Below the pieces are notes generated by a model, which had not been told where the DNA came from, ran no database searches, and saw nothing but the letters and a program-made list of their open reading frames with translations. 16,073 bases of DNA from a virus. Lineage: Duplodnaviria; Heunggongvirae; Uroviricota; Caudoviricetes. This document shows, in pieces, positions 486 to 16,073 of the stretch (positions are counted from its first letter, which is position 1; each line of letters begins with the position of its first letter). The DNA is taken from positions 1 to 16,073 of IMG/VR virus record IMGVR_UViG_2667527592_000011. One strand, 5' to 3'. A program made the translations under genes and the position numbers.

Positions 486-495
486 CATATTCTAT

Positions 496-768: not shown

Positions 769-804
769 AATTTTCTCCATCAAAACCGGCTGCACCCGGG
801 AAAA

Positions 805-1377: not shown

Positions 1378-2111
1378 CACTTCACCTCCTGCGGCGGTTC
1401 CGGTAGCGGCATCCAGTGAGTTGCTTGCTCAATACCATTACCCGGCTTAATCGTTGCATCTCCGCGCCGAAAGGTGCTTCCGGTATAGCGTGCGGAGCAT
1501 ATTAGCGGTTCAACCAGAGAGCTATCGAAATTCACCGAAATAAGCACGTTCTGGCCCTTTTCAGGCATTCGATCACTACAGCTTATCCAACTATCCGGAG
1601 TTCCCGGAGAGTTGCCATTTACATCGAAGTTTGGCTCTGCGTCCTGAACCAAGAGGATGTAACCATTCTTGGCTGTATCAAGTTCTAACGCTTCGGTGAC
1701 GGTGCCGAAATAGCGATTACCTAAATCAGCATCACAAGTGCTTATATCAATGGAAACTTCCATGCCTTCGATTAATTCTGGCAAGTTGTAAGTTTGGCTT
1801 ACAGGTTGGCTACCCTGAAGCATGGCGGCGCGGTGACACCAGATAATCCAGCCAAGTGCCATATCCCATGCCATGTATTCTCTATCGCCATTTTTTGCCC
1901 TACGGCGATCTACAGATTCCCCGAAACGCTTCTCTATAAATAATTCATAGGCTGCTCGTTCATCCGATACTGCTGCCAGTGATGCCAGTGCAATTTTTAA
2001 TGCGGTAAGCATGTTGTTTTGATCTTCATCGAGTCCGAACGGTATTTCATCCCGTGCTGACTCAATGCTGGTAATCGTGTTCTGTAACCATTCTTTGGTA
2101 AGAGTATTCAT
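1377..2111 (-). CDS. Phage hypothetical protein with a DUF551-like C-terminal region
   Basis: 244-aa ORF; ATG at 2111-2109 preceded by AAGGTGA. C-terminal segment WISCSDRMPEKGQNVLI...HWMPLPEPP resembles the DUF551 signature (from memory). Confidence 0.55.
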   Translation of the reverse strand: MNTLTKEWLQNTITSIESARDEIPFGLDEDQNNMLTALKIALASLAAVSDERAAYELFIEKRFGESVDRRRAKNGDREYMAWDMALGWIIWCHRAAMLQGSQPVSQTYNLPELIEGMEVSIDISTCDADLGNRYFGTVTEALELDTAKNGYILLVQDAEPNFDVNGNSPGTPDSWISCSDRMPEKGQNVLISVNFDSSLVEPLICSARYTGSTFRRGDATIKPGNGIEQATHWMPLPEPPQEVK

Positions 2112-2113
2112 AA

Positions 2114-2305
2114 CTATTTCACCTTAATCTCAACATTTCGCAGCTTTAGCTCTACTGGCAAGTCTGACTTTCCTGTTAATGCTAATGCGAGATTTTCAGG
2201 AGTAATGAGAGCAGTTATTGTTTTCCCCATCGCCAGACGAATAATCATTCGTATCTCGCGATCGTCACATGCTCCCGGTCGAACAATTGATATTTGTCCG
2301 TTCAT
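2114..2305 (-). CDS. Small hypothetical protein (63 aa)
   Basis: ATG at 2305-2303 preceded by AGGAG; stop 2 nt before the next start; fits the tight coupling of the operon. The ORF-track version (2114-2386) extends upstream in the same frame without a ribosome-binding site. Confidence 0.4.
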   Translation of the reverse strand: MNGQISIVRPGACDDREIRMIIRLAMGKTITALITPENLALALTGKSDLPVELKLRNVEIKVK

Positions 2306-2306
2306 C

Positions 2307-2906
2307 TCACTCTCCTTTGATGCGAATGCCTGCGGCGCGTGGCACATTAACTTCCACGATGCGCACATTTGGTTTGTACATCTCAATCGCTGTCAGCCAG
2401 TCAGCGCCGGTCATATGCTTTTCTGCATCGCCATTAGTCCATTGAACCGGCACACCAATAGCTTTCATCGCAATTTCTATTTCCCCGGCAATGGCGCTTT
2501 TCCCGCAACCAGTAAAACCAGAGACAACGACAAGAACTTCGCCTTTGGCTGGTTTTATTTCCCGTGCTTCCAGTTCAGCAATACGCTTACTCCCATCCGA
2601 GATAACACCTTCGTAATACTCACGCTGCTCGTTGAGTTTTGATTTTGCTGCCTCCAGTTCGTCCAGTAGTGCAATCACATCAGGGTCACTGTCATCAACT
2701 ACTGTTACGCGTGATTTTTCATAATGCTCGTCGGCAAGTGTGCGACCAATTTTGAAATCTCCATCACCACCATAACTGGAGCAGGCATAAGTGACATGTG
2801 CTCCAGATATACGCTGTATTGACATTTCCTCGCCACAAACAGAGCATTCAGGTACTGGCTTAGGTGAATAACGTTCCCGTAGCGCCTGATAATCAATCTC
2901 GCTCAC
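2307..2906 (-). CDS. Hypothetical protein with an N-terminal Cys-rich (zinc-ribbon-like) segment and a C-terminal Walker-A-like motif
   Basis: GTG start at 2906-2904 overlaps the upstream TGA (GTGA) and is preceded by AAGGAGG. Residues CSVCGEE...YACSS and GFTGCGKS (G-x4-GKS). Possibly Ea22-like, unverified. Confidence 0.55.
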   Translation of the reverse strand: MSEIDYQALRERYSPKPVPECSVCGEEMSIQRISGAHVTYACSSYGGDGDFKIGRTLADEHYEKSRVTVVDDSDPDVIALLDELEAAKSKLNEQREYYEGVISDGSKRIAELEAREIKPAKGEVLVVVSGFTGCGKSAIAGEIEIAMKAIGVPVQWTNGDAEKHMTGADWLTAIEMYKPNVRIVEVNVPRAAGIRIKGE

Positions 2907-3388
2907 TGGTTGCCCTCCTTCATAAAAATAATCCAGTGGGTCTTGTCACCCTTTCCTGTTCGTTGACCGATAACAGGCTTTCTGTCGGTCAGTGCCAATA
3001 TCTGGCGAACAGGTATTTGCGTTTCATTCCATTTAAAAATCAGAACGCCGTATGGCCACAACACACGAAAGGCTTCTTTGAATCCTTGCCGTAAATCATC
3101 ACGCCGGGTATCTTTATTCAGCCGTCCATATTTCTTTCCCATCCAGGCGTTATCACCAACACGCTCAAGATGCGGAGGGTCGAATACAACCATCGAAAAG
3201 GATGCGTCTGCAAATGGTAGTGCACGAAAATCAGCTATCAGGTCAGGACTGATAATCAGGCGTCGTCCATCACACAATGTGTGCTCTTCCTTTCTGATAT
3301 CGCTAAATATCGCCCGGTCGTCATTCTTATCGAACCAGAACATGCGACTGCCACAGCACATGTCGAGGATTGCTGCATGTCCAGTCAC
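2903..3388 (-). CDS. Small putative DNA methyltransferase (YfdM-like)
   Basis: AdoMet-binding-like motif ILDMCCGS and catalytic-type motif VVFDPPH (DPP[YFH]). Preferred start is GTG at 3388-3386, preceded by AAGGAGG with a 7-nt spacer and overlapping the upstream TGA; an alternative ATG lies at 3421. Confidence 0.6.
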   Translation of the reverse strand: MTGHAAILDMCCGSRMFWFDKNDDRAIFSDIRKEEHTLCDGRRLIISPDLIADFRALPFADASFSMVVFDPPHLERVGDNAWMGKKYGRLNKDTRRDDLRQGFKEAFRVLWPYGVLIFKWNETQIPVRQILALTDRKPVIGQRTGKGDKTHWIIFMKEGNQ

Positions 3389-3927
3389 TGGCTGCCTCCT
3401 TTGCGAAGCCGTTCCGCCCATTCTTCAAGGGATTTCTCTGCATATTCACCGGACAGGCCATCAATCGGGTGCGGTTCATTAGCCAACTCTTCTTTCGCTG
3501 ACAGAATCATGCGCGTAACGTCGAAAACTTCACGTAAAGACTTATTGATAAATCCGTGGTTGAAAGCAGCAGCAAGACGGCTTGCGGTATAGTTAATCCC
3601 CTCGTTGCGCGCCTCCGCACGTATTTCAGCCAGGAAAGCGTCGGTGGCTGGCATATTTCCTGTTGCCTTCATGGCCTCCAAAATAACCAGAACGCCATCT
3701 CGCCCAACCTCCTCAGCGATAACCTCGGTGTTGTCGCCAACAACATCGCAGAATGCCTGAACCGCCTTACGAGCCAGTTCATTCTCCGCCGCAAGCGCCG
3801 AAATCTTAGCCTCCGCTTCAGCAAATTTACGCACCAGATACTCAGCATTTGTTTCATTCACTTTCAGATCTCGCGGTACACATTTCCCGCGAAGAAACCC
3901 TTCCATTTCGAAAACATTCATGCGCAT
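3385..3927 (-). CDS. Phage hypothetical protein (180 aa)
   Basis: ATG at 3927-3925 preceded by GGAG; translationally coupled on both sides; Ala/Glu-rich central segment suggests a coiled coil. No family recognised. Confidence 0.55.
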   Translation of the reverse strand: MRMNVFEMEGFLRGKCVPRDLKVNETNAEYLVRKFAEAEAKISALAAENELARKAVQAFCDVVGDNTEVIAEEVGRDGVLVILEAMKATGNMPATDAFLAEIRAEARNEGINYTASRLAAAFNHGFINKSLREVFDVTRMILSAKEELANEPHPIDGLSGEYAEKSLEEWAERLRKGGSQ

Positions 3928-4454
3928 TTGCGTAACTCCGATAACTCGTTAAAACGTTCCATAAACATCCCATAGGCATGGACTGGCGACAGTGGAATAA
4001 CTTTGAACATCTCTGTTGCCGGGATACCTTCCAGAACAGGCCAGAAAGAGCCATCATCAAGCCCGAGATCACGGCGTTCGGTTGCCAGCATAATGAGATC
4101 GGCATATTTCACTGGCGTGCTCATAACAGGAGGTAACCCGTATTTCTCACGGATTACGGCGTCTATTTTTTCTTCCATCCGTTTATAGTCAGGAAGAAGT
4201 CGTTTCAGTGGCGCGGGGATGTCCTGGCAATATGCTTCTGTTGCATCATGCATTAACGCTTCAAAAGCAAATTCCTGCGGCACCAGCTGGCTGCAAAGCA
4301 CCGCATGCTGGGCGACACTGTAGAAGTGTGAAAGATGTCCTGCAAAGCGACAGATATTTGAAAGGGAAACTGCGATATCGTTAATCACGATGTCGTCTTT
4401 ATTTATCTTGTCATAATAAAAATGCTTCCCGGAAAAAGTTTTAATAAATGACAT
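3918..4454 (-). CDS. HD-domain phosphohydrolase (YfdR-like 5'-deoxynucleotidase family), 178 aa
   Basis: HD signature: H in SVAQHAVLCSQL and HD in ALMHDATEAY. Preferred start ATG at 4454-4452 with GGAG 6 nt upstream; the ORF track's GTG at 4466 is less likely. Length matches YfdR of CPS-53 (from memory). Confidence 0.7.
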   Translation of the reverse strand: MSFIKTFSGKHFYYDKINKDDIVINDIAVSLSNICRFAGHLSHFYSVAQHAVLCSQLVPQEFAFEALMHDATEAYCQDIPAPLKRLLPDYKRMEEKIDAVIREKYGLPPVMSTPVKYADLIMLATERRDLGLDDGSFWPVLEGIPATEMFKVIPLSPVHAYGMFMERFNELSELRKCA

Positions 4455-4548
4455 TTCGTTCTCCACTTTATATGCGCTGCACCGCGCTGAATTCTGCTAA
4501 AAGGAAGCTCTCACCATCCGGTGATTATTGAGTTAATTACGTTTCCAT

Positions 4549-4570
4549 AAATGCCCCCGCAGGGGCATTT
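4549..4570 (-). promoter_or_regulatory. Intercistronic stem-loop just after the YfdQ-like stop (possible attenuator or RNA-stability element)
   Basis: Perfect 9-bp stem AAATGCCCC / GGGGCATTT with a 4-nt loop, 13 nt downstream of the stop at 4583-4585; only a short U-tract follows on the - strand transcript, so it is not a canonical terminator. Confidence 0.3.
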
Positions 4571-4582
4571 GCAGTAATGAAA

Positions 4583-5407
4583 TCAGGCGGTGAAAGTACC
4601 AATAAAGGTTTCTACTTTGCTGTCTTTGAATTTCTCAACAAGCAGATCACGAAATTCGTTAGCCATTTCTTCCTGCATCGCTTCCAGCTGAATAATGCGA
4701 AGAACCAGTACAGGACGATCGCCAGTGATAATGCTGAGGCGTAATTTAAACGGACGTTCTTTCAGGCCTTCAAACGGAACGCATTTAAATTCAAATGCCA
4801 CTGGCATAATGTCTTTGGTTTTCGCTTCGACAGACTCCATCAGAGAGCGTTTGCCGCTGAAGTCATTGTCTTCAAAATCAGCGGTCTGGTTTGCTTCAAT
4901 TGTGATTTTACGGACTGCCGCAGCCGCTTTGGTTGCCTGAATGGTGTCACCATTAGCATCAAAGCCCACAAGGTAGTCGGCCCAGTCTTCAATCCATTCT
5001 GCCAGTGACTTCTGGGAGTTACGCTCGCCATTAACAGACAACAGAGCAGAAAACGGTGCTGTCTTTTTCAGTTTGAGGGTGGCGGTGTTATCTGCGTGAC
5101 CTGGTTCATCAATAGTACCCAGGTTAAGCACACTGACGGCACGCATATTATCGGCATCGATAAAGCAGCGGGTGCCTTCATCTGCAAGATCTTTAGAATA
5201 ACGGGTAAAGTCATCGATGCTGGCAGTGGAAAGCGCACCACGGAAACGGAAGCGATTTAAATTAAATTTTTCCAGATCATGAATGCGGAAATTCTCAGGC
5301 AATGCCACTGCATCGGCACCAATCTTACTGATAATTTCATTAACACCCTGAGCAGAAATAAGGGCATGGATTTGATTAATTGCGGTTGCGTCTAAGTTCT
5401 GAGACAT
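4583..5407 (-). CDS. YfdQ-like protein (DUF2303 family), 274 aa
   Basis: ATG at 5407-5405 preceded by GAGGA; length and position next to YfdR-like and YfdP-like genes match CPS-53-type prophage order (from memory). Confidence 0.6.
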
Positions 5408-5472
5408 AATAAGTCCTCACTATATAAAGATATTCAGTGATGAGATAAATAATCAGTTTATTAATAACGATA

Positions 5473-5835
5473 TTAATGACCTGCTGCGCGTAGTTTTCCG
5501 TCAGGCTCACCGGCAAGAGTCAGTAATTGTCCCTGGTCTTCCTGCAGAATAGTCAGGCGACCACCGCGATTGACATACATCGGCGTTTCGGTGGTGTCTT
5601 CTTCGGAAATTTTCCCGCGGTTAGTCGGGCGAACATATGAGAGTTTGTGTTTGATTTTCACACGGTTCTCATCAAATGGTTCGATTTCCAGGTTGAGTGA
5701 GACCTTACCTTTGGTTTTCGTGTTCATCACACCGGAAGCGACTTCACTGAGAACTGCGCCGATTTTGGTTTCAAATACGCCGCCGTCCAGCTCCCCGATA
5801 AATGCCTGCACATCAGTACTGCGTTCGCTAGCCAT
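5473..5835 (-). CDS. YfdP-like hypothetical protein (120 aa), first gene of the leftward operon
   Basis: ATG at 5835-5833 preceded by AGGAG with an 8-nt spacer. The ORF-track version (5473-6021) extends upstream without a ribosome-binding site and is Cys/Arg-rich, so the shorter form is preferred. Confidence 0.55.
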   Translation of the reverse strand: MASERSTDVQAFIGELDGGVFETKIGAVLSEVASGVMNTKTKGKVSLNLEIEPFDENRVKIKHKLSYVRPTNRGKISEEDTTETPMYVNRGGRLTILQEDQGQLLTLAGEPDGKLRAAGH

Positions 5836-5884
5836 TTTGCTGCTCCTCATCATATCGACCCTGCAAGGTCGGTTGGTTTCTCCA

Positions 5885-5982
5885 CAAAACAGAGAAGAAC
5901 ACTTGCGGTGGCAGCCGCCCGGATGGATTGGGTTATCAGCTCGTCGTCCGGTGATGCTCTTCTCTGTTTTGTAAAAAGAGCG
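5885..5982 (-). promoter_or_regulatory. boxA-like motif followed by a long imperfect hairpin in the PL leader (candidate antitermination or termination RNA element)
   Basis: On the - strand transcript: CGCTCTTTTTA (reverse complement of 5972-5982), resembling lambda/rrn boxA, immediately followed by a 14-bp stem CAAAACAGAGAAGA / TCTTCTCTGTTTTG (5885-5898 with 5958-5971) enclosing a 59-nt loop with internal GCGG/CCGC and CCGGA/TCCGG pairings. Confidence 0.3.
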
Positions 5983-6176
5983 GTACCAGCCGGAAGCAAG
6001 TGTACAAACTGGTACCGCCAAAGCAGTGGCTGTTGTGGTGACCGGTGCTGATCTCCGGCATGCGGTTATTTCAGACTCTCACGGGCATTTAATTGCCCCG
6101 CCGAACAGCTCTTTTCCGCAATAGCTGCAATGTCTTTCGCGCATCAGCCTGCGCATTCACCACAACTCTAAAAACA

Positions 6177-6230
6177 AATGTAGGATATCCAACATGTGGG
6201 TGTCAAGAGTTTATGTTGGTTATCCTACAT
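6177..6230 (-). promoter_or_regulatory. OL/PL: leftward early promoter with overlapping operators
   Basis: On the - strand: TTGACA (reverse complement of 6201-6206), 17-nt spacer, CTACAT (reverse complement of 6178-6183). 18-bp operator ATGTAGGATATCCAACAT (6178-6195) overlaps the -10; a second copy ATGTTGGTTATCCTACAT lies at 6213-6230. Confidence 0.55.
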
Positions 6231-6246
6231 AAAAAGATAGGCTCAT

Positions 6247-6273
6247 AAAAAAAACCGGGGATACCCCGGTTTT
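6247..6273 (-). terminator. Rho-independent terminator downstream of the repressor gene
   Basis: CCGGGG-ata-CCCCGG hairpin (6255-6269) flanked by an A8 run (6247-6254) and a T4 run (6270-6273); on the - strand the stem is followed by nine U residues, about 20 nt after the cI-like stop. Confidence 0.6.
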
Positions 6274-6293
6274 GCGATAGTGAGGAAGATGTG

Positions 6294-6947
6294 TCAAAAA
6301 TCCATTATTACTTGTTTGACAAGACCAACTATTCTGCAGTTCTCACCGCATTCAATAGTTTTATAGTTAGGATTTAGTGGGACGAGATACCTGTTCGGCC
6401 AGTCCTCAACAAATTTTTTGAGTGTCGCTTCTTGCCCACCATTGATATGGGCAACAACGATTTTTCCGTTAATACACTCTGTATCAATAATATCTGGCTC
6501 TACGATAACGATAGAACCTTCTGGTATCGATGGTGAGCCGAGGGGATTGGTCATTGAATCACCACGGACCCGTAGTGCAAATGCCATTTCTGATACAAGG
6601 GCGGTAGTATAAACCCACTCTTCAGCATCTTCTTTCCTGACACCAGGCTCCGTCATTGTCCATGAACCCGCCTGAACCCACGAGATAAGGGGGACTTTTT
6701 TAACTGCGAATATTTCAGGTTTTAGATTTATCTTTGGTTCAGGCGAGCCTTTTCCGCTAACAAGCCACAGAGGATCGCATTTAAGTGCGTTGGCTAGGGC
6801 TTGAAGGTTGGCTCCATTTGGTTGGTAGTCGTCCTTTTCCCATCCAGTAACCGTGACGCGGTTCACACCAGTCAAATCAGCCAGTGCTTGTTGTGTCAGG
6901 TTCAGTTCTTTTCGCCTTTGGCGAATACGATCACTCATGTTCATCAT
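6294..6947 (-). CDS. cI: CI-like prophage repressor (HTH_XRE N-terminal domain + S24 LexA-like peptidase domain)
   Basis: N-terminal HTH (LTQQALADLTGVNRVTVTGWE); Ala-Gly cleavage-site candidate (WVQAGSW); catalytic Ser in RGDSM and Lys in ATLKKF. Divergent from a cro-like gene across the operators; no ribosome-binding site, possibly leaderless as for lambda cI from PRM. Confidence 0.85.
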   Translation of the reverse strand: MMNMSDRIRQRRKELNLTQQALADLTGVNRVTVTGWEKDDYQPNGANLQALANALKCDPLWLVSGKGSPEPKINLKPEIFAVKKVPLISWVQAGSWTMTEPGVRKEDAEEWVYTTALVSEMAFALRVRGDSMTNPLGSPSIPEGSIVIVEPDIIDTECINGKIVVAHINGGQEATLKKFVEDWPNRYLVPLNPNYKTIECGENCRIVGLVKQVIMDF

Positions 6948-7011
6948 GTAGGCAATCCTACCACATGCCCATGTAGGATTCTTGACATTGGTATGTTGGA
7001 TATCCTACATT
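6946..7011 (+). promoter_or_regulatory. OR/PR: rightward early promoter with three operator-like sites
   Basis: TTGACA (6982-6987), 17-nt spacer, CTACAT (7005-7010). Operators: ATGTTGGATATCCTACAT (6993-7010, over the -10), ATGTAGGATTCTTGACAT (6971-6988, over the -35) and a degenerate site ATGTAGGCAATCCTACCACAT (6946-6966) overlapping the cI start codon; spacing about 21-22 bp. Confidence 0.6.
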
Positions 7012-7042
7012 TCTGCTTAACGTAATTTAACGGGAGGCAGAA

Positions 7043-7240
7043 ATGCGGAAATCCGACGTGATTAATTATTTCGGCGGAGTTTGTAAAACCGCCGAAGCCC
7101 TAGGTATTAAGCATCCGTCTGTTTCAGAGTGGCCTGAGATTATTCCTGAAGGCCGAGCGTACCAGTTAGAAAAAATTACTAACGGGAAACTGAAAGTTGA
7201 CGTGTCTTTATATCAAAAGACTAACAGTGCTGCGGCATAA
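7043..7240 (+). CDS. cro: Cro-like repressor (P22 Cro family)
   Basis: 65 aa; GGGAGG 5 nt upstream of the ATG. MRKSDVINYFGG...ALGI...SVSEWPEIIPEGRAYQLEKITNGKLKV closely parallels P22 Cro (MYKKDVIDHFG...ALGISDAAVSQWKEVIPEKDAYRLEIVTAGALK, from memory). Divergent from the cI-like gene. Confidence 0.8.
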   Translation: MRKSDVINYFGGVCKTAEALGIKHPSVSEWPEIIPEGRAYQLEKITNGKLKVDVSLYQKTNSAAA

Positions 7241-7267
7241 AAACACCACAGAAATGAGGAATTAACC

Positions 7268-7852
7268 GTGGGTAAAGAACCTGAATGGAAAGTTGATAAA
7301 CAGCCAGCATGGCTGGTGGCAGCAATACGAAGAACGATTGCTGATTTACCTCATGGTTATGAGGAAGCAGCAGAAATTCTTGGTTTGTATAAATCTGATG
7401 ATATCACCCCAGCAAAAGATCAATTGCATAACAGACTGCGTAGCGGTGGGGATCAAATTTTTCCACTTGAGTGGGCCATGGTTTTACAGGATGCCAGTGG
7501 TACCAGGCATGTAACGGATGCAATAGCCCGTCGTAGTAATGGGGTGTTTGTGCCGCTGGTGGTCATTGATGACATTGACAATGGTGACATTAATCAGCGG
7601 CTGATGGAGTCAATAGAATGGATTGGCAAGCATTCCCAGTACTTACGCAAGGCAACTGCTGATGGAGTTATTGACCAGGCTGAGCGTGAGCAAATCGAAG
7701 AGAACAGCTACCAAGTAATGGCGAAGTGGCAGGAGCATTTAACACTGTTATTTCGTGTTTTTTGTGCGCCGGAAAAGAGTAACGCCCGCGAGTGTGCAGC
7801 TCCGGGCGTCGTGGCGTCGATTGCTTCTGGTTGTGGAGAAACTAACGCATGA
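7268..7852 (+). CDS. Hypothetical regulator at the cII position (possibly YmfL/CII-like)
   Basis: GTG start at 7268 preceded by GAGGA; 194-aa ORF immediately after cro. Family is inferred from position and recollection only; the C-terminal 35 residues are Cys/Ala-rich and of doubtful validity. Confidence 0.45.
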
Positions 7853-8187
7853 ACAGTTTAACAACACACTACCGTCGCTCGCAACTGATTGCGCTTCCTG
7901 TACCGGGTGGAAAAGCGAAGGTGGAGTATTGCTATGCAGTAAATGTACCAGGTGGCAGGGTAATTGTAACCCACAGCTTTGCAGAGTGGGCTGTGGGTGA
8001 TTTCAACCGGCAGAAGGAGACAGTCCTTTGCGACAAGTTAACCGCTGGTTCAAAGATCACTACGGAGTGCCCGTCAGAGTCATTCGTTGGGAGCCGGAAA
8101 CACAACGGGTTATCTACCTCCGCGAAGGTTATGAGCATGAATGCTTCAGTCCGCTCGAACAGTTTCGTCGTAAATTCAGGGAAATAG
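7849..8187 (+). CDS. YmfM-like protein (112 aa), possible SOS-associated cell-division inhibitor; 3' half has a competing reading frame
   Basis: ATG at 7849 overlapping the upstream stop (ATGA); length and position (after the cII-position gene, before the O-like gene) match e14 ymfM (from memory). The 3' third is Ser/Thr/Asn-rich low-complexity sequence, while another frame over 8001-8207 reads protein-like. Confidence 0.4.
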
Positions 8188-8196
8188 AGGTCGGTC

Positions 8197-9138
8197 ATGA
8201 GCACTAAATTAACCGGCTATGTATGGGATGGTTGCGCTGCATCAGGCATGAAGTTATCCAGCGTGGCAATTATGGCCCGCCTGGCTGATTTCAGTAATGA
8301 CGAAGGTGTGTGCTGGCCATCAATTGAAACCATTGCCCGTCAGATTGGCGCGGGGATGAGTACCGTCAGAACGGCTATCGCACGGCTGGAAGCAGAAGGC
8401 TGGTTAACGCGTAAGGCGCGTCGCCAGGGTAACCGCAATGCGTCGAATGTTTATCAGCTTAACGTTGCGAAGCTTCAGGCAGCGGCATTTTCTCAACTGT
8501 CAGATTCTGACCCGTCAAAATCTGACGCATCAAAATCTGACCCGTCAAAATTTGATGCGTCGAAATCTGGCAAAAAAGCGGGTTTTCACCCGTCAGAATC
8601 TGGCGGGGATCCGTCAGTAAAATCAAAACATGATCCGTCAGATAAAAAACCTTCTCGTCCGGACGCTTCGCAACCGGACACGCAGACGGCTGAACAGGAG
8701 TTTTTAACTCGCCATCCTGATGCGGTTGTATTCAGTCCTAAAAAGCGCCAGTGGGGAACGCAGGATGATTTGACCTGCGCACAGTGGCTCTGGAAAAAAA
8801 TCATCGCTCTGTACGAGCAGGCCGCTGAATGTGACGGCGAAGTGGTACGTCCTAAAGAACCGAACTGGACAGCCTGGGCAAACGAAATTCGCCTGATGTG
8901 TGTACAGGATGGGCGTACTCACAAACAAATCTGCGAGATGTACAGCCGCGTCAGCCGCGATCCGTTCTGGTGCCGTAACGTGCTCAGCCCGTCGAAGCTG
9001 CGGGAAAAATGGGATGAGCTTTCCCTGCGCTTATCGCCGTCCGTCAGCACGTACACAGAAAAACGCGAAGATCCGTACTTCAAAGCCAGTTACGACAATG
9101 TGGACTACAGCCAGATCCCGGCAGGATTCAGGGGGTGA
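8197..9138 (+). CDS. Replication initiation protein, O-like (N-terminal winged-helix DNA-binding domain, iteron-encoding repeat linker)
   Basis: GAGG 7 nt upstream of the ATG. N-terminal HTH region (SVAIMARLADFSNDEGVCWPSIETIARQIGAGMSTVRTAIARLEAEGWL); central repeat PSKSD/ASKSD/PSKFD/ASKSG encoded by 15-bp direct repeats; follows the cro, cII-position and ymfM-like genes as oweE does in e14. Confidence 0.7.
   Translation: MSTKLTGYVWDGCAASGMKLSSVAIMARLADFSNDEGVCWPSIETIARQIGAGMSTVRTAIARLEAEGWLTRKARRQGNRNASNVYQLNVAKLQAAAFSQLSDSDPSKSDASKSDPSKFDASKSGKKAGFHPSESGGDPSVKSKHDPSDKKPSRPDASQPDTQTAEQEFLTRHPDAVVFSPKKRQWGTQDDLTCAQWLWKKIIALYEQAAECDGEVVRPKEPNWTAWANEIRLMCVQDGRTHKQICEMYSRVSRDPFWCRNVLSPSKLREKWDELSLRLSPSVSTYTEKREDPYFKASYDNVDYSQIPAGFRG
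8514..8650 (+). repeat. Iteron-like direct repeats inside the O-like gene (candidate phage replication origin)
   Basis: Four tandem 15-bp units CCGTCAAAATCTGAC / GCATCAAAATCTGAC / CCGTCAAAATTTGAT / GCGTCGAAATCTGGC (8514-8573), further CCGTCAG-containing copies to about 8643, then an A-rich tract GATAAAAAACC. Confidence 0.55.
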
Positions 9139-9140
9139 TT

Positions 9141-9629
9141 ATGAGTCTTTTGAATGAAGTTCAGAAATTCATTGAAGCCCATCCGGGGTGTACTTCCGGA
9201 GACATTGCGGATGCTTTGGCAGGTTACTCACGGCAGCGCGTTCTGCAGTCAGCAAGCAAGTTACGTCAGAGTGGGCGTGTGGCTCACCGTTGTGAAGGAG
9301 ATACACGCAGACATTTCCCACGCCTGACTGAGAGAGCGCAGGAGCCGGAACCACAACCAGTTCGTGAAACCAGACCTGTGCGCAATTTCTATGTCGGCAC
9401 TAACGATCCCCGGGTGATTTTGTGCCTGACCCGCCAGGCTGAAGAACTGGAGTCAAGGGGCTTATACCGTCGTGCTGCAACGGTGTGGATGGCGGCATTC
9501 CGTGAAAGCCACTCCCAGCCAGAACGAAACAATTTTCTGGCGCGTCGTGAGCAGTGTTTACGGAAAAGCAGCAAGCGTGCTGTATCGGGTGATGAGTGGT
9601 ATCTGTCAGGGAATTACGTGGGGGCTTAA
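9141..9629 (+). CDS. PerC/Pch-family transcriptional regulator homolog with an N-terminal winged-helix-like extension
   Basis: Preferred start ATG at 9141 (GGGGGTGA upstream); the ORF track starts at a GTG at 9135. C-terminal signature GLYRRAATVWMAAF...FLARREQCL resembles the PerC motif GLWRRAA..W...RR..C (from memory). Confidence 0.55.
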   Translation: MSLLNEVQKFIEAHPGCTSGDIADALAGYSRQRVLQSASKLRQSGRVAHRCEGDTRRHFPRLTERAQEPEPQPVRETRPVRNFYVGTNDPRVILCLTRQAEELESRGLYRRAATVWMAAFRESHSQPERNNFLARREQCLRKSSKRAVSGDEWYLSGNYVGA

Positions 9630-10282
9630 TGAGTAATAAATATTGCCAGGAGCTGGTGGAACTGCGGAACAAACCAGCCCATGAACTGAAGGAAGTGGGC
9701 GATCAGTGGCGCACGCCGGACAACATTTTCTGGGGAATTAACACCCTGTTTGGCCCGTTTGTTCTGGATCTGTTCACTGACGGTGATAACGCCAAATGTG
9801 CTGCGTATTACACGGCGGAAGACAACGCGCTGGCGCATGACTGGTCAGAACGTCTTGCGGAGCTTAAAGGTGCTGCCTTTGGTAATCCCCCATACAGCCG
9901 CGCCAGTCAGCATGAGGGGCAATACATCACTGGCATGCGTTACATCATGAAGCATGCCAGTGCCATGCGTGATAAGGGCGGGCGCTATGTTTTCCTGATC
10001 AAAGCTGCCACCAGCGAAGTGTGGTGGCCGGAAGATGCGGACCATATTGCTTTTATTCGCGGGCGTATTGGTTTTGAACTGCCTGTCTGGTTTATCCCGA
10101 AAGACGAGAAGCAGGTACCGACAGGCGCTTTCTTCGCTGGTGCTATTGCTGTTTTCGACAAGACCTGGAAGGGACCGGCAATCAGCTACATCGGGCGCGA
10201 TGAACTTGAGGCATGTGGTGAGGCGTTTTTGGCGCAGGTTCGCCAGCAGGCAGAAAAACTTGTCAGGGAGATGGCGGCATGA
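9629..10282 (+). CDS. Phage Dam-type DNA N6-adenine methyltransferase
   Basis: Catalytic motif FGNPPYS (NPPY). ATG at 9629 overlaps the upstream TAA (TAATG); the ORF-track extension from 9596 has no ribosome-binding site. 217 aa. Confidence 0.75.
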   Translation: MSNKYCQELVELRNKPAHELKEVGDQWRTPDNIFWGINTLFGPFVLDLFTDGDNAKCAAYYTAEDNALAHDWSERLAELKGAAFGNPPYSRASQHEGQYITGMRYIMKHASAMRDKGGRYVFLIKAATSEVWWPEDADHIAFIRGRIGFELPVWFIPKDEKQVPTGAFFAGAIAVFDKTWKGPAISYIGRDELEACGEAFLAQVRQQAEKLVREMAA

Positions 10283-10605
10283 CGACGTTAACTCAATGCC
10301 AGCAGCAGGTGCTGGATATGCTGATTTCTTACCAGCAAGAGCGTGGCTTTCCGCCAACCAATCAGGAGGTGGCAACCATGCTGGGATACCGTTCAGTGAA
10401 TGCAGCGGTGGAGCATCTTCGCGCACTGGAGAAAAAAGGCGTCATCACGATAAAGCGTGGCGTGGCCCGGGGGATCACGCTTCATACCGCAGTGAAGGAC
10501 GACGACAGCGAAGCGGTCGGTATCATCCGCGCACTGCTTGCCGGTGAGGAGAACGCTAGGTTGCGTGCAGCCCACTGGTTACATGAGAGGGGCCTGAAAG
10601 TATGA
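10279..10605 (+). CDS. LexA DNA-binding-domain-only protein (no S24 peptidase domain)
   Basis: LTQCQQQVLDMLISYQQERGFPPTNQEVATMLGYRSVNAAVEHLRALEKKGVITIKRGVARGITL parallels the E. coli LexA N-terminus ([65 protein letters not shown], from memory). Only 108 aa, so the cleavage site and Ser/Lys dyad are absent. ATGA overlaps on both sides. Confidence 0.7.
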   Translation: MTTLTQCQQQVLDMLISYQQERGFPPTNQEVATMLGYRSVNAAVEHLRALEKKGVITIKRGVARGITLHTAVKDDDSEAVGIIRALLAGEENARLRAAHWLHERGLKV

Positions 10606-10991
10606 AGTTGATCCTTCCTTTCCCGCCCAGTGTGAACACGTACTGGCGACACCCCAACAAAGGGGCATTTGCTGGTAAGAGCCTGATAAGCGAGGTGGGG
10701 CGAAAATTTCAGAGCGCGGCGTGCGCAGCAATAGTTGAGCAGTTACGTCGTCTGCCGAAACCAACGTCGGCACCTGCTTCAGTGGAGATCGTGTTGTTTC
10801 CGCCGGATAACCGGATCCGTGATCTGGACAACTATAACAAGGCGCTGTTTGACGCCCTGACCCACGCGGGTGTGTGGGAAGACGACAGACAGGTGAAAAG
10901 AATGCTGGTGGAGTGGGGACCGGTTATCCCGAAAGGGAAGGTCGAGATCACTATCAGTAAGTACGAGAAAACGGCGGGTGCAGCCGCCTGA
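10602..10991 (+). CDS. rusA: RusA-family Holliday junction resolvase
   Basis: 129 aa; PFPPSVNTYWRH and DLDNYNKALFDALTHAGVWEDDRQV match the RusA signature (PWPPSNNRYYRH, DLDN...FDALT); GAGAGGGG upstream of the ATG. Confidence 0.85.
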   Translation: MKLILPFPPSVNTYWRHPNKGAFAGKSLISEVGRKFQSAACAAIVEQLRRLPKPTSAPASVEIVLFPPDNRIRDLDNYNKALFDALTHAGVWEDDRQVKRMLVEWGPVIPKGKVEITISKYEKTAGAAA

Positions 10992-11010
10992 TTAAGAGGA
11001 GAAACGAAGT

Positions 11011-11820
11011 ATGAATAATCTGATGGTCATTGATGGTATTGAAGTTCGTCGTGATGCTTATGGGCGTTACAGCCTGAACGATCTGCATCGCGCAGCAGTA
11101 GCATCTGGTGCAAATGCCAGAACCAAGGAGCCAGGAAAGTTTCTTTCCAGCCAACAAACTGTTGAGCTTGTTCATGAATTGACCAACACCCAGAATTTGG
11201 GTGTTGACCCGGTGAGTGTGATTCATGGGGGAAATGAACGGGGAACGTATGTCTGCAAGGAACTGGTGTATGCCTATGCAATGTGGATCAGCCCGTCATT
11301 CCATCTGAAGGTGATCCGTACTTTCGATATGGTAACCAGCGCACCGGAAAAATTATCCGGGCAGGCTGCTGACAAGATGCAGGCTGGTGTGATTCTGCTG
11401 GACTTTATGCGCAGGGAGTTAAACCTGTCTAACTCATCAGTGCTTGGTGCCTGTCAGAAACTCCAGGAGGCTGTTGGCTTACCGAATCTGGCACCGCGCT
11501 ATGCTATTGATGCTCCTGCTGACGCGCCTGATGGCTCAAGTCGCCCCACGCTGTCGCTGAGTGCACTGCTGAAACAGTATGGTATCCGCCTTACGGCTAA
11601 TCAGGCATATCACCAGATGGTGAAGCTGGGGATCGTCGAGCAGCGCGAACGATACAGCCGTACCGCGATTAACAACATCAAAAAATTCTGGTCGCTGACA
11701 GCGAAAGGCTGCATGTTCGGCAAGAACATCACCAGTCCCGCAAATCCGCGCGAGACGCAGCCGCATTTCTTCGAATCCCGATTCCCTGAGCTGTTAAAGC
11801 TGCTCGATACCGTTCATTGA
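11011..11820 (+). CDS. KilA-N domain protein
   Basis: Strong ribosome-binding site AAGAGGAG; N-terminal KilA-N-like region (VIDGIEVRRDAYGRYSLNDLHRA...VIHGGNERGTYVCKELVYAYAMWISPSFHLKVI). Confidence 0.65.
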   Translation: MNNLMVIDGIEVRRDAYGRYSLNDLHRAAVASGANARTKEPGKFLSSQQTVELVHELTNTQNLGVDPVSVIHGGNERGTYVCKELVYAYAMWISPSFHLKVIRTFDMVTSAPEKLSGQAADKMQAGVILLDFMRRELNLSNSSVLGACQKLQEAVGLPNLAPRYAIDAPADAPDGSSRPTLSLSALLKQYGIRLTANQAYHQMVKLGIVEQRERYSRTAINNIKKFWSLTAKGCMFGKNITSPANPRETQPHFFESRFPELLKLLDTVH

Positions 11821-11821
11821 G

Positions 11822-12817
11822 GTGACTGTGAGAGCACTACTGACCCCTGAAATTGCCCCGCGTATGGGGATCGTATTGTTCAGACCTGGTTCAGAGCTGA
11901 TGCCCCTGTTTATGCAGGGGCGTGTCCTGCTGGAGCCTGAGCCGGAACGTTATTCATCTTTTGCCAGTGGTGCCGTTCCGGCGGCATCACAACCGCTGGC
12001 GGATGATCCTGTCGTTCGGGCCGTGTTCCGCAATGAGGCAGTGATCCGTCGTGCTGGTGGCGTGGAATGTCTTGAAAGCTGGTTACTTCGTGAAAAGGGC
12101 TGTCAGTGGCCTCATTCCGACTGGTACAGCGAGAACATTACCACAATGCGACACGCTCCGGGCGCAATCCGTCTGTGCTGGCACTGCGATAACCAGCTGC
12201 GCGATCAGTTCACGGAACGGCTGGAATCAATGGCAACGGATAACTGTGCCCGCTGGGTGTTGTCTGTTGTGCGTCGGGATCTCGGTTTTGATGATAGTCA
12301 CGTTGTGACAATGCCGGAACTGTGCTGGTGGCTGATTCGTCATGATCTGGCGGATGCCTTACCGGAAAGTGCAGCCCGTAAGGCACTGAGATTACCAAAG
12401 CCTGTTGTGCCGTCTGTCACCCGGGAAAGTGACCTTGTGCCTTCGGTTCCTGCCACCAGCATCATCCAGGATAAGGCAAAAAAGGTGCTGGCGCTGAAAG
12501 TGGATCCGGAGTCGCCGGAGTCTTTTATGTTACGCCCAAAACGTCGCCGCTGGGTTAATGAAAAGTACACGCGCTGGGTTAAGACGCAGCCGTGTGCATG
12601 TTGTGGAAAGCCTGCTGATGATCCCCACCACCTGATAGGTCACGGTCAGGGTGGAATGGCTACAAAAGCGCATGACCTCTTTGTGTTGCCTTTGTGCAGA
12701 AAGCATCACGACGAGCTGCATGCGGATACCGTGGCATTTGAAGAGAAGTATGGCTCCCAGCTGGAGCTGATATTTCGTTTTATCGATCGTGCGCTGGCAA
12801 TAGGCGTGCTGGCCTGA
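11822..12817 (+). CDS. DUF968 / NinG-like protein with a C-terminal HNH-type Cys/His motif (YdfU-like)
   Basis: C-terminal CACCGKP...DPHHLIGHGQGG...LPLCRKHHDELH; sits directly upstream of Q as ydfU does in Qin (from memory). Start is uncertain: GTG at 11822 or 11828. Confidence 0.6.
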   Translation: MTVRALLTPEIAPRMGIVLFRPGSELMPLFMQGRVLLEPEPERYSSFASGAVPAASQPLADDPVVRAVFRNEAVIRRAGGVECLESWLLREKGCQWPHSDWYSENITTMRHAPGAIRLCWHCDNQLRDQFTERLESMATDNCARWVLSVVRRDLGFDDSHVVTMPELCWWLIRHDLADALPESAARKALRLPKPVVPSVTRESDLVPSVPATSIIQDKAKKVLALKVDPESPESFMLRPKRRRWVNEKYTRWVKTQPCACCGKPADDPHHLIGHGQGGMATKAHDLFVLPLCRKHHDELHADTVAFEEKYGSQLELIFRFIDRALAIGVLA

Positions 12818-12834
12818 TTTTGTGGAGAAAGTTG

Positions 12835-13206
12835 ATGCGTGATATTCAAATGGTTCTTGAACGTTGGGGGGCATGGGTGGCAAATAATCACGAGGATGTG
12901 GAATGGTCATCTGTTGCTGCAGGTTTTAAGGGATTAATTCCTTCGAAAGTAAAATCCCGCCCGCAATGTAGCGATGACGATGGCCTGATCATTAGCTCTG
13001 CGATGACAGTTCTTAAGAAAAAGGAACCGTATCAATACGAATTACTGGAAATGTATTATGTGTATGGGGTTACATTACGGGCGTTGGGGGTAAAACTGGG
13101 GATATCACTTAATCAGGTTGTTATCAGACTGCAGAAAGCTGAAGGGTTTATTGACGGTTGTCTGGCAATGTTGGGGGTATCTTTAGAAATTGATTGTTAC
13201 ATATAG
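12835..13206 (+). CDS. Q-type late-gene antiterminator (phage 21 / DLP12 QuuD-like family)
   Basis: ATG at 12835 with GGAG 8 nt upstream; N-terminus MRDIQMVLERWGAW...SKVKSRPQC...RLQKAEGFIDG parallels QuuD-type Q proteins (from memory). The ORF track's TTG at 12820 is less likely. Confidence 0.7.
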   Translation: MRDIQMVLERWGAWVANNHEDVEWSSVAAGFKGLIPSKVKSRPQCSDDDGLIISSAMTVLKKKEPYQYELLEMYYVYGVTLRALGVKLGISLNQVVIRLQKAEGFIDGCLAMLGVSLEIDCYI

Positions 13207-13281
13207 TAATAAATTCAATCAAAGTAAATAATCATATTTTATTATAACCTCCTGATGATACCTGTTCATTGGGAGGTTATT

Positions 13282-13899
13282 ATGGATAAAAATGTAGAGC
13301 ATGTATTAGTTGATGCAATTGAAAATAAGCAATCTTTAACAGTCGTTTACTTAGGAGGGAGCCAGCCCGGAACATTAAGGAATATTTCTCCGATTAGTAT
13401 AAATGGGGATAAATTGCGGGCAAGATGCCATAGTTCTGGAGCAGTAAAGGTTTTCAATCTTGGGAAAATACAGTTACCCAGTGACTCCTGCGCGGTATCT
13501 ATGCACTATGGAGATTTAGAAGTTAAAGCTTATGAGACGATGCAGAGCGTAAATGACAACTTTCATGCCCTTTATCCTGAAGGACGATGGGGTGTTGATT
13601 TTAATGAGCATCGCTTTGCTTTATTTGATTTTTTTAAAAACGGGAAACGAAAAAAAACGGCATTTATGGCAATTGAGTTCAGGGAAAGAGATGAAGAGAA
13701 AATAATAACAGGTGTAACAATTGATATTGGTATATCTGGAACAGTGATTTCTGAGAAGTCCCGAATCCCAAAAAGACGACCATGGGTAGTGGTTGGTCCC
13801 GAACACGGAGAATACAGTACTTATTCAACTTTGGACAAGGCTGCTACAGCGTTTTTTGAGAGGCTATCGTTGATAGCATCCGGCCTGGAAGATAATTGA
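13282..13899 (+). CDS. Hypothetical protein, AT-rich cargo (moron) gene, 205 aa, unknown function
   Basis: GGGAGG 5 nt upstream of the ATG at 13282; stop TGA at 13897-13899. Markedly AT-rich (about 38-40% GC by eye) and Lys/Ile/Asn-rich against its flanks; lies between Q and the holin, the usual cargo slot of lambdoid phages. No recognisable catalytic motif. Confidence 0.6.
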   Translation: MDKNVEHVLVDAIENKQSLTVVYLGGSQPGTLRNISPISINGDKLRARCHSSGAVKVFNLGKIQLPSDSCAVSMHYGDLEVKAYETMQSVNDNFHALYPEGRWGVDFNEHRFALFDFFKNGKRKKTAFMAIEFRERDEEKIITGVTIDIGISGTVISEKSRIPKRRPWVVVGPEHGEYSTYSTLDKAATAFFERLSLIASGLEDN

Positions 13900-14028
13900 T
13901 TTTATGTTTGGTATTCAGAGTTCGCCGTGCTTAAGAAAGTCAAGATTCTAAAAATACTGAATGAGCTACTTGTGTTATAACAAAAATGCTATTAGTGTGT
14001 TAAGAGTGGTTACTTCGCCACACAACTT

Positions 14029-14054
14029 AAACCCGCCACTGAGCGGGTTTTTTG
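14029..14054 (+). terminator. Rho-independent terminator (end of the cargo gene transcript, or tR'-like)
   Basis: CCCGC (14032-14036), loop cactga, GCGGG (14043-14047), then T6 (14048-14053). Confidence 0.6.
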
Positions 14055-14175
14055 TACCTGTAAACTTGGTGCAGTACAGTAAACACGCTGGTGGTCGTGA
14101 ATACTGACTTTTTATCTTGCTGGCTTTTTAGACAAGAGTTATTGGTATGTTATGTTAACCAGAAGGGAAAAAGAC

Positions 14176-14379
14176 ATGCTAAAACAGCAAGATATGACAG
14201 AAACCGCCGCCGCAGTCCTTCATTTCTTACCTGCTGACAAGTGGGTAACGCCACGCATGATGACGAGAACTACCGGAGTAAGCGAAGCCCGGTGCCAGTT
14301 AATACTGACTCAGTTAGTTCTGGCGGGTCTGGCGAAGGATAACGGCGGGTACGGGAATAAATTCAGACGCTGCCAGTAA
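14176..14379 (+). CDS. Small hypothetical protein (67 aa), possibly a winged-helix DNA-binding protein
   Basis: ATG at 14176 preceded by AGAAGGGAAA; the ORF-track form starts at 14152. Segment TPRMMTRTTGVSEARCQLILTQLVLAGLAKDNGGYGNKF has an HTH-like character; directly upstream of a methyltransferase gene. Confidence 0.4.
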   Translation: MLKQQDMTETAAAVLHFLPADKWVTPRMMTRTTGVSEARCQLILTQLVLAGLAKDNGGYGNKFRRCQ

Positions 14380-14529
14380 TGGCGGTTTCCTGCTGTGAAA
14401 ATGGGCGGCTGGTGGGTGTTGGTAGCACCTGCCAGCCATTCGCTCATGCTTACTGGTCACAAGCGAACCACGGCCCACTGCTTTAGCGCAAAAGCAGAGT
14501 GAGCCTACCAGAGTTACGCTTACTGATCC

Positions 14530-15582
14530 ATGAAAAATACTGTAAAAATAAACAGTGTTGGTTTAATCAACGCTGATTGCCTGCATTTTATTCAGTCCCT
14601 GCCTGATGATTCCATTGACCTGATTGTTACCGATCCGCCGTACTTCAAGGTGAAACCCAACGGTTGGGACAATCAGTGGAAAGGGGACGAAGATTACCTT
14701 AAGTGGCTGGACCACTGTCTGGCCCAGTTCTGGCGGGTGTTAAAACCTGCCGGAAGCCTTTACCTGTTCTGTGGGCATCGTCTGGCATCTGATATTGAGA
14801 TCATGATGCGTGAACGTTTCAACGTGCTTAACCATATCATCTGGGCGAAGCCGTCCGGACGTTGGAATGGGTGTAATAAAGAAAGTCTGCGCGCATATTT
14901 TCCTGCCACAGAGCGCGTTCTGTTTGCTGAACATTACCAGGGGCCATATCGCGGCAAAAGTGACGGCTATGCAGCAAAAGAAAGGGAACTCAAACAGCAC
15001 ATAATGGCACCGCTGATATCGTATTTCAGGGATGCTCGTGCCGAACTGGGTATAACGGCAAAACAAATTGCCGAAGCCACAGGTAAGAAAAATATGGTTT
15101 CCCACTGGTTTGGTGCCAGTCAGTGGCAGTTGCCGAATGAGGCTGACTATCGGAAGTTACAGGCACTGTTTTCCCGTATAGCGGCAGAGAAGTTTCAGGA
15201 ACAACAACTGGAACAACCACACCACCAGCTGGTGGCATCTTATGATTCACTGAATCGCAAATATTCTGAATTGCTGGATGAGTTTAAATCTCTCCGGCGC
15301 TATTTCTCCGTATCAGTCTCCGTGCCTTATACCGATGTCTGGATGCATAAACCCGTTCAGTTCTACCCGGGGAAACATCCGTGTGAGAAACCGGCGGATA
15401 TGCTCAGGCAAATAATCAATGCCAGTAGTCGACCAGGTGATCTGGTTGCTGATTTTTTTATGGGATCCGGTTCCACAATAAAAGCAGCAATGGCGCTGGG
15501 GCGTCGGGCCTTAGGTGTTGAGCTTGAGTCAGAGCGGTTTAACCAGACAGTGAAAGAGATAAACGAGCTGGTGGGGAAATAA
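14530..15582 (+). CDS. Beta-class DNA methyltransferase (N6-adenine or N4-cytosine specific), apparent orphan
   Basis: Motif [12 protein letters not shown] near the N-terminus and motif [14 protein letters not shown] near the C-terminus (beta-class order). No candidate restriction endonuclease gene adjacent within the window. Confidence 0.8.
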
Positions 15583-15586
15583 TCTG

Positions 15587-15612
15587 GTGGCCACGTCAGG
15601 TGGCCTTTTTAT
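15587..15612 (+). terminator. Rho-independent terminator after the methyltransferase gene
   Basis: GGCCAC (15590-15595), loop gtcag, GTGGCC (15601-15606), then T5 (15607-15611), 8 nt after the stop. Confidence 0.55.
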
Positions 15613-15649
15613 TTCCATTACACAGCACCCGCATCTGCGAGGTGGGGTT

Positions 15650-15865
15650 ATGAAATCCATGGATAAGTTAACAACGGGTGTCGCCTATGGCACCTCAGCA
15701 GGTAGTGCCGGGTACTGGTTTTTACAGCTGCTCGATAAAGTCACGCCCTCACAGTGGGCGGCAATAGGTGTGCTGGGTAGTCTGGTATTTGGCTTGCTGA
15801 CGTATCTGACAAACCTTTATTTCAAGATTAAAGAAGACAAGCGTAAGGCTGCACGGGGAGATTAA
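15650..15865 (+). CDS. Phage 21 S-type pinholin (S21 / EssQ-like) with a dual-start motif
   Basis: [71 protein letters not shown] parallels S21 ([46 protein letters not shown]..., from memory). Two in-frame Met codons (M1, M4) as in the antiholin/holin pair; 71 aa. The ORF-track extension from 15587 overlaps the terminator and is rejected. Confidence 0.85.
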
Positions 15866-15869
15866 TTCA

Positions 15870-16073
15870 ATGACTCAAAACTATGAACTGATTGTGAAAG
15901 GGATCCGCAATTTTGAGAATAAAGTTACGGTAACTTTAGCGTTACGGGACAAAAAACGCTTTGACGGTGAAATTTTTGACCTGGACATCTCGCTGGACCG
16001 TGTTGAAGGTGCCGCGCTGGAGTTTTATGAGGCAGCAGCCAGAAGGAGCATCAGACAGGTCTTCCTGGATGTT
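15870..16073 (+). CDS. DUF1327-like phage protein (YdfR-like), 3'-truncated by the window end
   Basis: ATG at 15870, open to the window end (MTQNYELIVKGIRNFENKVTVTLALRDKKRFDGEIFDLDISLDRVEGAALEFYEAAARRSIRQVFLDV); sits immediately after the holin as ydfR does in Qin (from memory). Confidence 0.5.
   Translation, partial: MTQNYELIVKGIRNFENKVTVTLALRDKKRFDGEIFDLDISLDRVEGAALEFYEAAARRSIRQVFLDV

Follow-up and report, generated by a model that had tools for sequence, protein, structure and literature searches.

The stretch of DNA considered here spans positions 1 to 16,073 of the IMG/VR virus record IMGVR_UViG_2667527592_000011 (Caudoviricetes). This 16,073-nucleotide stretch, hereafter the window, is a lambdoid prophage of the SfV/mEp460/cdtI type, and its genes follow the order CI-type repressor, Cro, YmfL, YmfM, an O-like protein, a PerC/YfdN-like protein, Dam, LexN, RusA, KilA-N, a DUF968/HNH protein and Q. 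Our subject is LexN, the name we use for a protein of 108 residues that belongs to the LexA family but has no S24 autocleavage domain. The reading that we favour, at a little less than even confidence, is that LexN is a RecA-proof repressor of LexA-type boxes that is made during lytic growth.

The open reading frame (ORF) of LexN lies exactly where the original prediction had placed it, and a GGAG Shine-Dalgarno sequence is found 8 nucleotides 5' of its ATG. The match to the N-terminal winged-helix domain of LexA, claimed in the same prediction, was borne out by several searches. The Pfam family PF01726 (LexA_DNA_bind) is matched from end to end (positions 1-65 of 65, E=2.6e-19, 69 bits against a cutoff of 23.7), and the E. 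coli LexA chains in the Protein Data Bank (PDB) are recovered with E values of about 1e-15. The match to PHROG 362, described as "transcriptional repressor", extends over the full length of the protein, C-terminal helical hairpin included (LexN 1-108 against 1-106 of 106, E=2.6e-59). The lexA equivalog model TIGR00498 gives LexN 70.3 bits, under its cutoff of 110.95, and is covered over positions 1-91 of 203 only. Peptidase_S24 (PF00717) has no match in LexN, which ends at residue 108 and lacks equivalents of Ser119 and Lys156. The absence of the Ser/Lys dyad had been predicted, and so had its consequence: because the autocleavage domain is missing, LexN does not cleave itself in cis.

The nature of the remaining residues can be judged from a structure model calculated with AlphaFold2 (AF2) from a 20-sequence alignment, with a mean predicted local distance difference test score (pLDDT) of 84. 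It consists of a winged helix-turn-helix domain, a linker of low confidence (residues 71-74 have a pLDDT below 50) and the C-terminal helical hairpin. For the first of these, the top Foldseek match is the N-terminal domain of 3jso, the complex of E. coli LexA with DNA, at a root-mean-square deviation (rmsd) of 1.0 A and 50% identity over 68 residues. The C-terminal hairpin is probably a dimerisation module. On one point the original prediction was mistaken, as it had the protein end before the Ala-Gly cleavage site. HMMER aligns LexN 2-90 to LexA 2-86, which sets Ala88-Gly89 of LexN opposite Ala84-Gly85 of LexA, with 19 residues beyond. This dipeptide was considered as a vestigial cleavage site and rejected. 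Among 149 distinct sequences of the short family, taken from viral contigs and used for all conservation counts below, Ala is found in 33 and Gly in 109, and in the model the pair sits inside a confidently predicted helix (pLDDT about 90). Being both unconserved and helical, Ala88-Gly89 does not form a credible cleavage loop.

What LexN might bind depends on its recognition helix and wing. In the crystal structure of E. coli LexA, CTGT is read mainly by S39, N41, A42 and E45 (reviewed in PMC11442139), and E44 is a contact residue in an older NMR-based model, according to a passage in PMC13416735. LexN is identical to E. coli LexA at all four of the crystal-structure contacts, as well as at H46 and at R64-G65-I66 of the wing; at position 44 it has V where E. 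coli LexA has E44. The alignment of the DNA-contacting helix that had been proposed as a check therefore upholds S39, N41, A42 and E45 and fails at E44. Since the recognition helix and the wing keep the residues that read CTGT, a LexA-type palindrome is most likely the kind of site that LexN would bind, and binding to SOS boxes is plausible on these residue identities. As far as is known, the Enterobacterales hosts of LexN phages all use boxes of the form CTGT-N8-ACAG.

Some of these residues also stand out when the family is considered as a whole. A HMMER search of 1.84 billion representative proteins gave 4626 matches at E<=1e-3, and full-length relatives of 105-118 residues, at 40-52% identity, have the same C-terminal hairpin. 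Within the short family, Q8, V11, G23, P25, P26, S39, N41, K53, R64, G65 and I66 are invariant, and A42, A97 (148 of 149) and L101 (144 of 149) nearly so. Pairwise ratios of non-synonymous to synonymous substitution (dN/dS) across relatives are 0.11-0.26 overall; the N-terminal domain gives 0.20 and the C-terminal part 0.25. As both halves of the protein are under purifying selection, the gene is functional. Variants in which the same N-terminal domain carries a different tail, or none, occur at the same genomic position. In some public proteins (P0128, P0135, P0141, P0144 and P0156) a tandem pair of LexA DNA-binding domains is present and an S24 domain is lacking; these proteins are possibly single-chain pseudo-dimers.

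The position of the gene bears on when LexN would be made. As predicted, it is found in a nin-like region, between the O-like gene and Q, and it runs in the same direction as Q. The start codon of LexN overlaps the stop codon of dam, and its own stop codon overlaps the start of rusA, in both cases through the sequence ATGA. A 4-nucleotide overlap at the start is present in 182 of 212 related loci regardless of which gene precedes LexN, and the overlap at the stop recurs in 113 of the 212. A simple promoter scan of the plus strand from 7000 to 10279 gave no promoter-like site. A promoter or operator of the LexN gene's own was searched for and not found, since the gene overlaps both of its neighbours. 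Given the ATGA overlaps and the lack of a promoter-like site upstream, LexN belongs to the rightward (nin) operon as a delayed-early gene with coupled translation. Translated as part of this operon, it would be made when the phage grows lytically or has been induced, and a quiescent lysogen would not make it. Among 181 diverged viral loci, in which LexN is 41-52% identical to that of the window, the steadiest syntenic partner is the DUF968 gene (172 loci), followed by rusA in 150 (in 90 of one 91 loci it lies directly downstream, and 60 of the other 90 contain it). Within the block, LexN diverges fastest in these loci, at 41-50% identity compared with 61-77% for RusA and 77-80% for Dam.

The gene is widespread in E. 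coli. At >=90% nucleotide identity, 2233 of 5426 complete genomes (about 41%) carry it, with up to four copies per genome. With tblastn, LexN was found in 60 of 50,697 phage records, all of them with Enterobacterales hosts, and the records and loci of the short family that name a host name a member of this order every time. Carriers include SfV (as orf42, "unknown"), SfII, SfIV, cdtI, mEp460, 1720a-02 and phages that encode the Shiga toxins (Stx) Stx2a and Stx2c; the proteins of SfV, SfII, cdtI, mEp460 and the Stx2 phages are 96-100% identical. A scan of genome contigs recovered mostly host lexA genes, and the short family in Atlantibacter and Kosakonia only. One carrier, 1720a-02, is the published "bully phage" that suppresses the induction of co-resident prophages, an effect ascribed to its Cro.

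Potential targets in the window itself were sought with the SOS-box scan that the original prediction had proposed. It did yield one canonical box, although, as discussed below, the same box is found in phages that have no LexN. The window holds one exact match to CTGT-N8-ACAG, at 14540-14555; with one mismatch there are 9 matches against 5.4 expected, which is at chance level. According to a position weight matrix (PWM) built from 21 E. coli boxes, the surrounding sequence TACTGTAAAAATAAACAGTG scores 21.8 bits, compared with 13-26 for the training boxes and a maximum of 18.2 in 200 shuffles, and the next-best site in the window reaches 9.8 bits. No enrichment of CTGT/ACAG pairs at spacings of 0-16 was seen in the window.

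This single box falls within the first codons of the late-region methylase gene. CTGT-N8-(A/C)CAG is kept in the methylase homologues of Citrobacter phiNP, Klebsiella Kp4866-6, Morganella IME1369_02 and Providencia 117lys. Since it persists through changes of the spacer and, at one position, of the encoded amino acid, it looks like a real LexA site, and this conservation suggests that the methylase is under the control of host LexA. We considered the co-occurrence of the box with LexN as evidence for the function of LexN and rejected it: host LexA suffices to explain the box, which is also found in LexN-less phages. Many LexN phages do not have this methylase. Upstream of the methylase there is a very conserved noncoding leader of about 140 nucleotides (14395-14535), with blocks that are 100% identical even in phages of Morganella and Providencia, for which the overall identity is about 76%. 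Its computed fold has two long hairpins (minimum free energy -56.9 kcal/mol, z=-3.98), with two compensatory pairs only in the RNAalifold consensus. No Rfam match was found for it, and it may be a regulatory RNA or leader. Elsewhere, near-perfect SOS boxes (TACTGTTTTTACATACAGTA, TACTGTTTTTATATACAGTA) are found within the ORF of the CI-type repressor of mEp460 (L001 2825-2844), and at similar positions in relatives; in 10 close viral loci (e.g. L013:1095, L034:444) such boxes lie about 3.0-3.6 kb upstream of LexN. The CI gene of the window has no such near-perfect box.

What the analysis establishes is the fold, the lack of a protease domain, the conservation of the contact residues, the place of the gene in its operon and the purifying selection on it. 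From these we infer the dimerisation of LexN, its DNA target, and the direction and benefit of the regulation, in the following manner. The delayed-early operon would supply LexN at a time when host LexA is already cleaved. The helical hairpin would supply the dimerisation that LexA obtains from its C-terminal domain, and LexN would then bind the LexA-type palindromes of the host SOS regulon, and possibly the box in the phage methylase gene. In this way it would restore or reinforce the repression of SOS genes while host LexA is cleaved.

Such a protein can be compared with several known ones. With E. coli LexA (3jso, 1jhh) it shares the N-terminal winged helix, at the identity and rmsd given above, and the residues S39, N41, A42, E45, H46 and R64-G65-I66. 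It differs from LexA in having no S24 protease and dimerisation domain, no Ser119/Lys156 and no functional cleavage loop, in the replacement of E44 by V, in a helical hairpin of 35 residues that takes the place of the C-terminal domain, and in its location in a phage delayed-early operon. Another is the N-terminal fragment (1-84) that remains when LexA is cleaved, which is likewise a stand-alone LexA DNA-binding domain. The isolated N-terminal domain retains some SOS-box binding and repression, and its degradation by ClpXP is needed for full SOS induction (PMC10584840). In contrast to this fragment, LexN is genetically encoded, has the extra conserved hairpin and terminates with GLKV, whereas cleavage leaves the LexA fragment with an exposed VAA at its C-terminus. 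This VAA is said to have been identified as a signal for ClpX by Neher et al. in 2003. Because it lacks a C-terminal VAA, LexN may be a stable protein.

A further parallel is provided by Ind- mutants of LexA and CI such as LexA S119A, which are also repressors that RecA* cannot inactivate. When over-expressed, Ind- variants block the SOS response and persister formation (PMC3159453). These are, however, laboratory point mutants that retain the C-terminal domain, whereas LexN is natural and widespread and does without it. With phage and plasmid SOS modulators such as GIL01 gp7 and the DinI-like proteins, LexN would share the proposed outcome, a host SOS response that is damped or reshaped in favour of the mobile element; those proteins contact LexA or RecA, while LexN would occupy operators.

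Several observations weigh against LexN acting on LexA-type boxes as a RecA-proof repressor. In the short family, position 44 is occupied by A, V or T, with one F, and never by Glu or any other acidic residue. Position 45 depends on the clade, with E in 78 members, D in 38, A in 21 and L in 11. Together, positions 44-46 define five clade-specific classes: AEH (56), TDM (37), VEH (21), to which the protein of the window belongs, VAH (20) and ALH (11). Such variation would not be expected if the whole family read one fixed host operator, and the TDM, VAH and ALH clades may well have moved to other sites. The spacing of the half-sites would be set by the geometry of the proposed dimer. The methylase box is present without LexN in phiNP, IME1369_02 and 117lys. 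Finally, the sole characterised truncated LexA homologue of a phage, gp6 of GIL01, has a private site and activates transcription.

This last protein is the precedent for the strongest rival explanation, in which LexN is a phage-specific repressor or activator that has a private operator and controls a phage promoter and not the host SOS regulon. We regard this as possible, though on the doubtful side. GIL01 (Betatectivirus) gp6 consists of a LexA N-terminal domain only, binds its own palindrome GaCACAnnTGTGaC and activates the late promoter P3 (PMC6182141). Like LexN it is phage-encoded, is essentially a LexA winged-helix domain and comes from an early operon. The loss of E44 in all members, together with the clade-specific classes at 45-46, is what diversifying specificity would produce, and the faster divergence of LexN relative to rusA and dam points the same way. 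Stand-alone LexA-domain proteins of 65-150 residues are also common in unrelated phages, among them Mycobacterium phage Wildcat, Tectiviridae and uncultured Caudovirales. Nevertheless, the likeness between the two proteins has its limits. With 66 residues, gp6 has no C-terminal hairpin and is 35% identical to LexN. It has K (the essential K38) at the equivalent of N41 and R at the equivalent of E45, and thus differs at both positions from Bacillus LexA, whereas LexN equals E. coli LexA at both. In other words, the VEH-class protein of the window keeps all four crystal-structure contacts and gp6 has changed two of them. Moreover, no candidate operator was found for a gene that has no intergenic space, and the palindromes at other spacings were not enriched in the window. 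For the window protein we therefore tilt towards a LexA mimic, on the grounds that LexN, unlike gp6, is identical to its host's LexA at 41 and 45. If the private operator were real, LexN would be the first lambdoid counterpart of gp6, a captured and retargeted DNA-binding domain of a host regulator.

A second rival takes LexN to be no transcription factor at all but a DNA-binding accessory that targets or restrains RusA and the DUF968/HNH nuclease. The tight synteny with both genes, usually through overlapping stop and start codons, would fit such a role, and so would fusion proteins in which LexA_DNA_bind is joined to the C-terminal, HNH-like half of DUF968. These fusions are rare (P0154, P0252, P0253), forming three clusters that are 79-80% identical to one another. 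The Rosetta-stone argument that could be built on them was rejected as strong evidence, as fusions of Dam, O and KilA-N to DUF968 exist too, and all of these look like deletions within the nin region of decaying prophages. A conserved gene order is normal in lambdoid modules, and one subgroup is entirely without RusA. The residues conserved in LexN are those for sequence-specific readout of the major groove, and we consider the accessory role improbable. More improbable still is that LexN modulates the SOS response through protein contacts, either by joining LexA N-terminal domains on DNA or by offering its Ala-Gly helix as a pseudo-substrate to LexA- or CI-type proteases or to RecA*. The alignment of Ala88-Gly89 with the LexA cleavage site could be taken in this sense. 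The C-terminal domains of LexA-type proteins reportedly cleave substrates in trans, a finding of Kim and Little from 1993. Phage targeting of LexA by protein contact is exemplified by GIL01 gp7. Against this stand the poor conservation and helical setting of the dipeptide, and the parts of LexA that dimerise and contact RecA* lie in the C-terminal domain (PMC3159453), which LexN does not have. The last rival, that LexN is what remains, without function, of a captured lexA, would suit a truncated homologue of a host gene but is effectively refuted by the selection and conservation data, namely the dN/dS values, the C-terminal module kept in relatives of 40-52% identity, an ORF that is intact and coupled in more than 200 loci, and the prevalence of the gene in E. 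coli, so that its chances are close to nil.

The gene itself is already catalogued in databases, and truncated LexA homologues of phages are already known through gp6. Its annotations vary between "LexA DNA binding domain protein", "LexA family transcriptional regulator" (NCBI) and "transcriptional repressor", and the records of cdtI, 1720a-02, mEp460_4F5 and 2H10 use the labels "SOS-response repressor and protease LexA" or "RecA-mediated autopeptidases". As LexN has no protease domain, the annotations as a protease LexA or a RecA-mediated autopeptidase are wrong. A pangenome study of Stx phages lists "pham 237", a LexA family transcriptional regulator (pfam01726) of 15 phages, and contains no functional work on it (PMC8136144). 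Matched by annotation and Pfam domain, pham 237 is presumably the LexN family. A full-text search of the open-access literature returned no functional study of LexN. LexN is set apart by the conserved helical hairpin, the host-like recognition residues, the setting in a lambdoid nin operon and the very high prevalence in E. coli, Stx phages included.

The features discussed above are collected with their coordinates in the table below.

Table 1. Features of the window in and around the LexN gene; positions count from the first letter of the window.
Feature	Position	Strand	Basis or remark
CI-type repressor, HTH_3 and Peptidase_S24	6294-6947	-	domain matches
YmfM homologue, 97% identical to the K-12 e14 cell-division inhibitor	7849-8187		
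O-like replication gene	8197-9138		contains 15-bp repeats, probably iterons
PerC-domain (YfdN-like) putative transcriptional activator	9135-9629		3' end overlaps dam start by 34 nt
Dam N6-adenine methyltransferase of phage, upstream neighbour	9596-10282	+	PF05869, E=1e-45
ATGA, overlap of dam stop and LexN start (translational coupling)	10279-10282	+	sequence
LexN, 108-residue LexA-family protein without S24 autocleavage domain	10279-10605	+	ORF, PF01726, PHROG 362, dN/dS
Winged helix-turn-helix domain, residues 1-69	10279-10485	+	AF2: helices 6-22, 28-35, 40-52, wing 56-68
Recognition helix, residues 40-52 (S39 just before)	10396-10434	+	alignments, family conservation
Beta-hairpin wing, residues 56-68, with invariant R64-G65-I66	10444-10482	+	AF2, conservation
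C-terminal helical hairpin, helices 75-88 and 93-103	10501-10587	+	AF2, pLDDT about 90 for these blocks
ATGA, overlap of LexN stop and rusA start	10602-10605	+	sequence
RusA Holliday-junction resolvase, downstream neighbour	10602-10991	+	PF05866
DUF968/HNH-type nuclease	11822-12817	+	PF06147, PHROG 96
Q	12820-13206		
Late-region N6_N4 DNA methylase	14530-15582		
Only canonical SOS box of the window, TACTGTAAAAATAAACAGTG	14538-14557	+	PWM; codons 3-9 of late-region methylase

Of the remaining genes of the prophage, the cleavable CI-like repressor and the YmfM-like protein had both been predicted, and both are present, the former with an HTH_3 and a Peptidase_S24 domain and the latter as a close homologue of the e14 protein of K-12. 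A 59-residue ORF (8028-8207) overlaps the YmfM homologue in another frame, and in many genomes the annotation pipeline PGAP calls this ORF a DUF4222 protein and leaves ymfM unannotated. Within the O-like gene, 8506-8569 contains 4.3 copies of the 15-bp repeat TCTGACCCGTCAAAA; these repeats, which are probably the iterons of the origin, encode the repetitive DPSKSDASKS stretch of the O-like protein. The PerC-domain protein is a second candidate regulator of the nin region, perhaps with an effect on the host. An ORF of 214 residues (13255-13899), situated between Q and the predicted late terminator region, matches only PHROG 8498, of unknown function; searches with Pfam, NCBIfam and PADLOC gave no match, and it may be a moron. 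Downstream of Q, a GC-rich hairpin followed by a run of T (aaacccgccactgagcgggttttttgt, 14030-14052) looks like a tR'-type terminator, and is absent from the list produced by a simple terminator scan. PADLOC gave no link to a defence system, and the Rfam search of the window gave no match.

If LexN does bind LexA operators, it would be a second repressor in the SOS circuit, one that DNA damage would leave active. In E. coli, prophage induction, the release of Shiga toxin, stress-induced mutagenesis and the formation of persisters are all driven by the SOS response. A stronger form of the proposal, which we hold to be rather unlikely, is that LexN is a natural RecA-proof mimic of LexA that re-occupies, after induction or infection, the host SOS boxes that cleaved LexA has vacated, and so shuts down SOS functions that harm the phage. 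Were this the case, the functions silenced could include toxin genes, mutagenic polymerases, LexA-controlled antirepressors of rival prophages and the lysis genes of colicins, and the phage would meanwhile bring its own resolvase, RusA, from the very next gene. LexN would then modify SOS-dependent toxin production, mutagenesis, persistence and prophage competition on a wide scale, in a role that has been overlooked.

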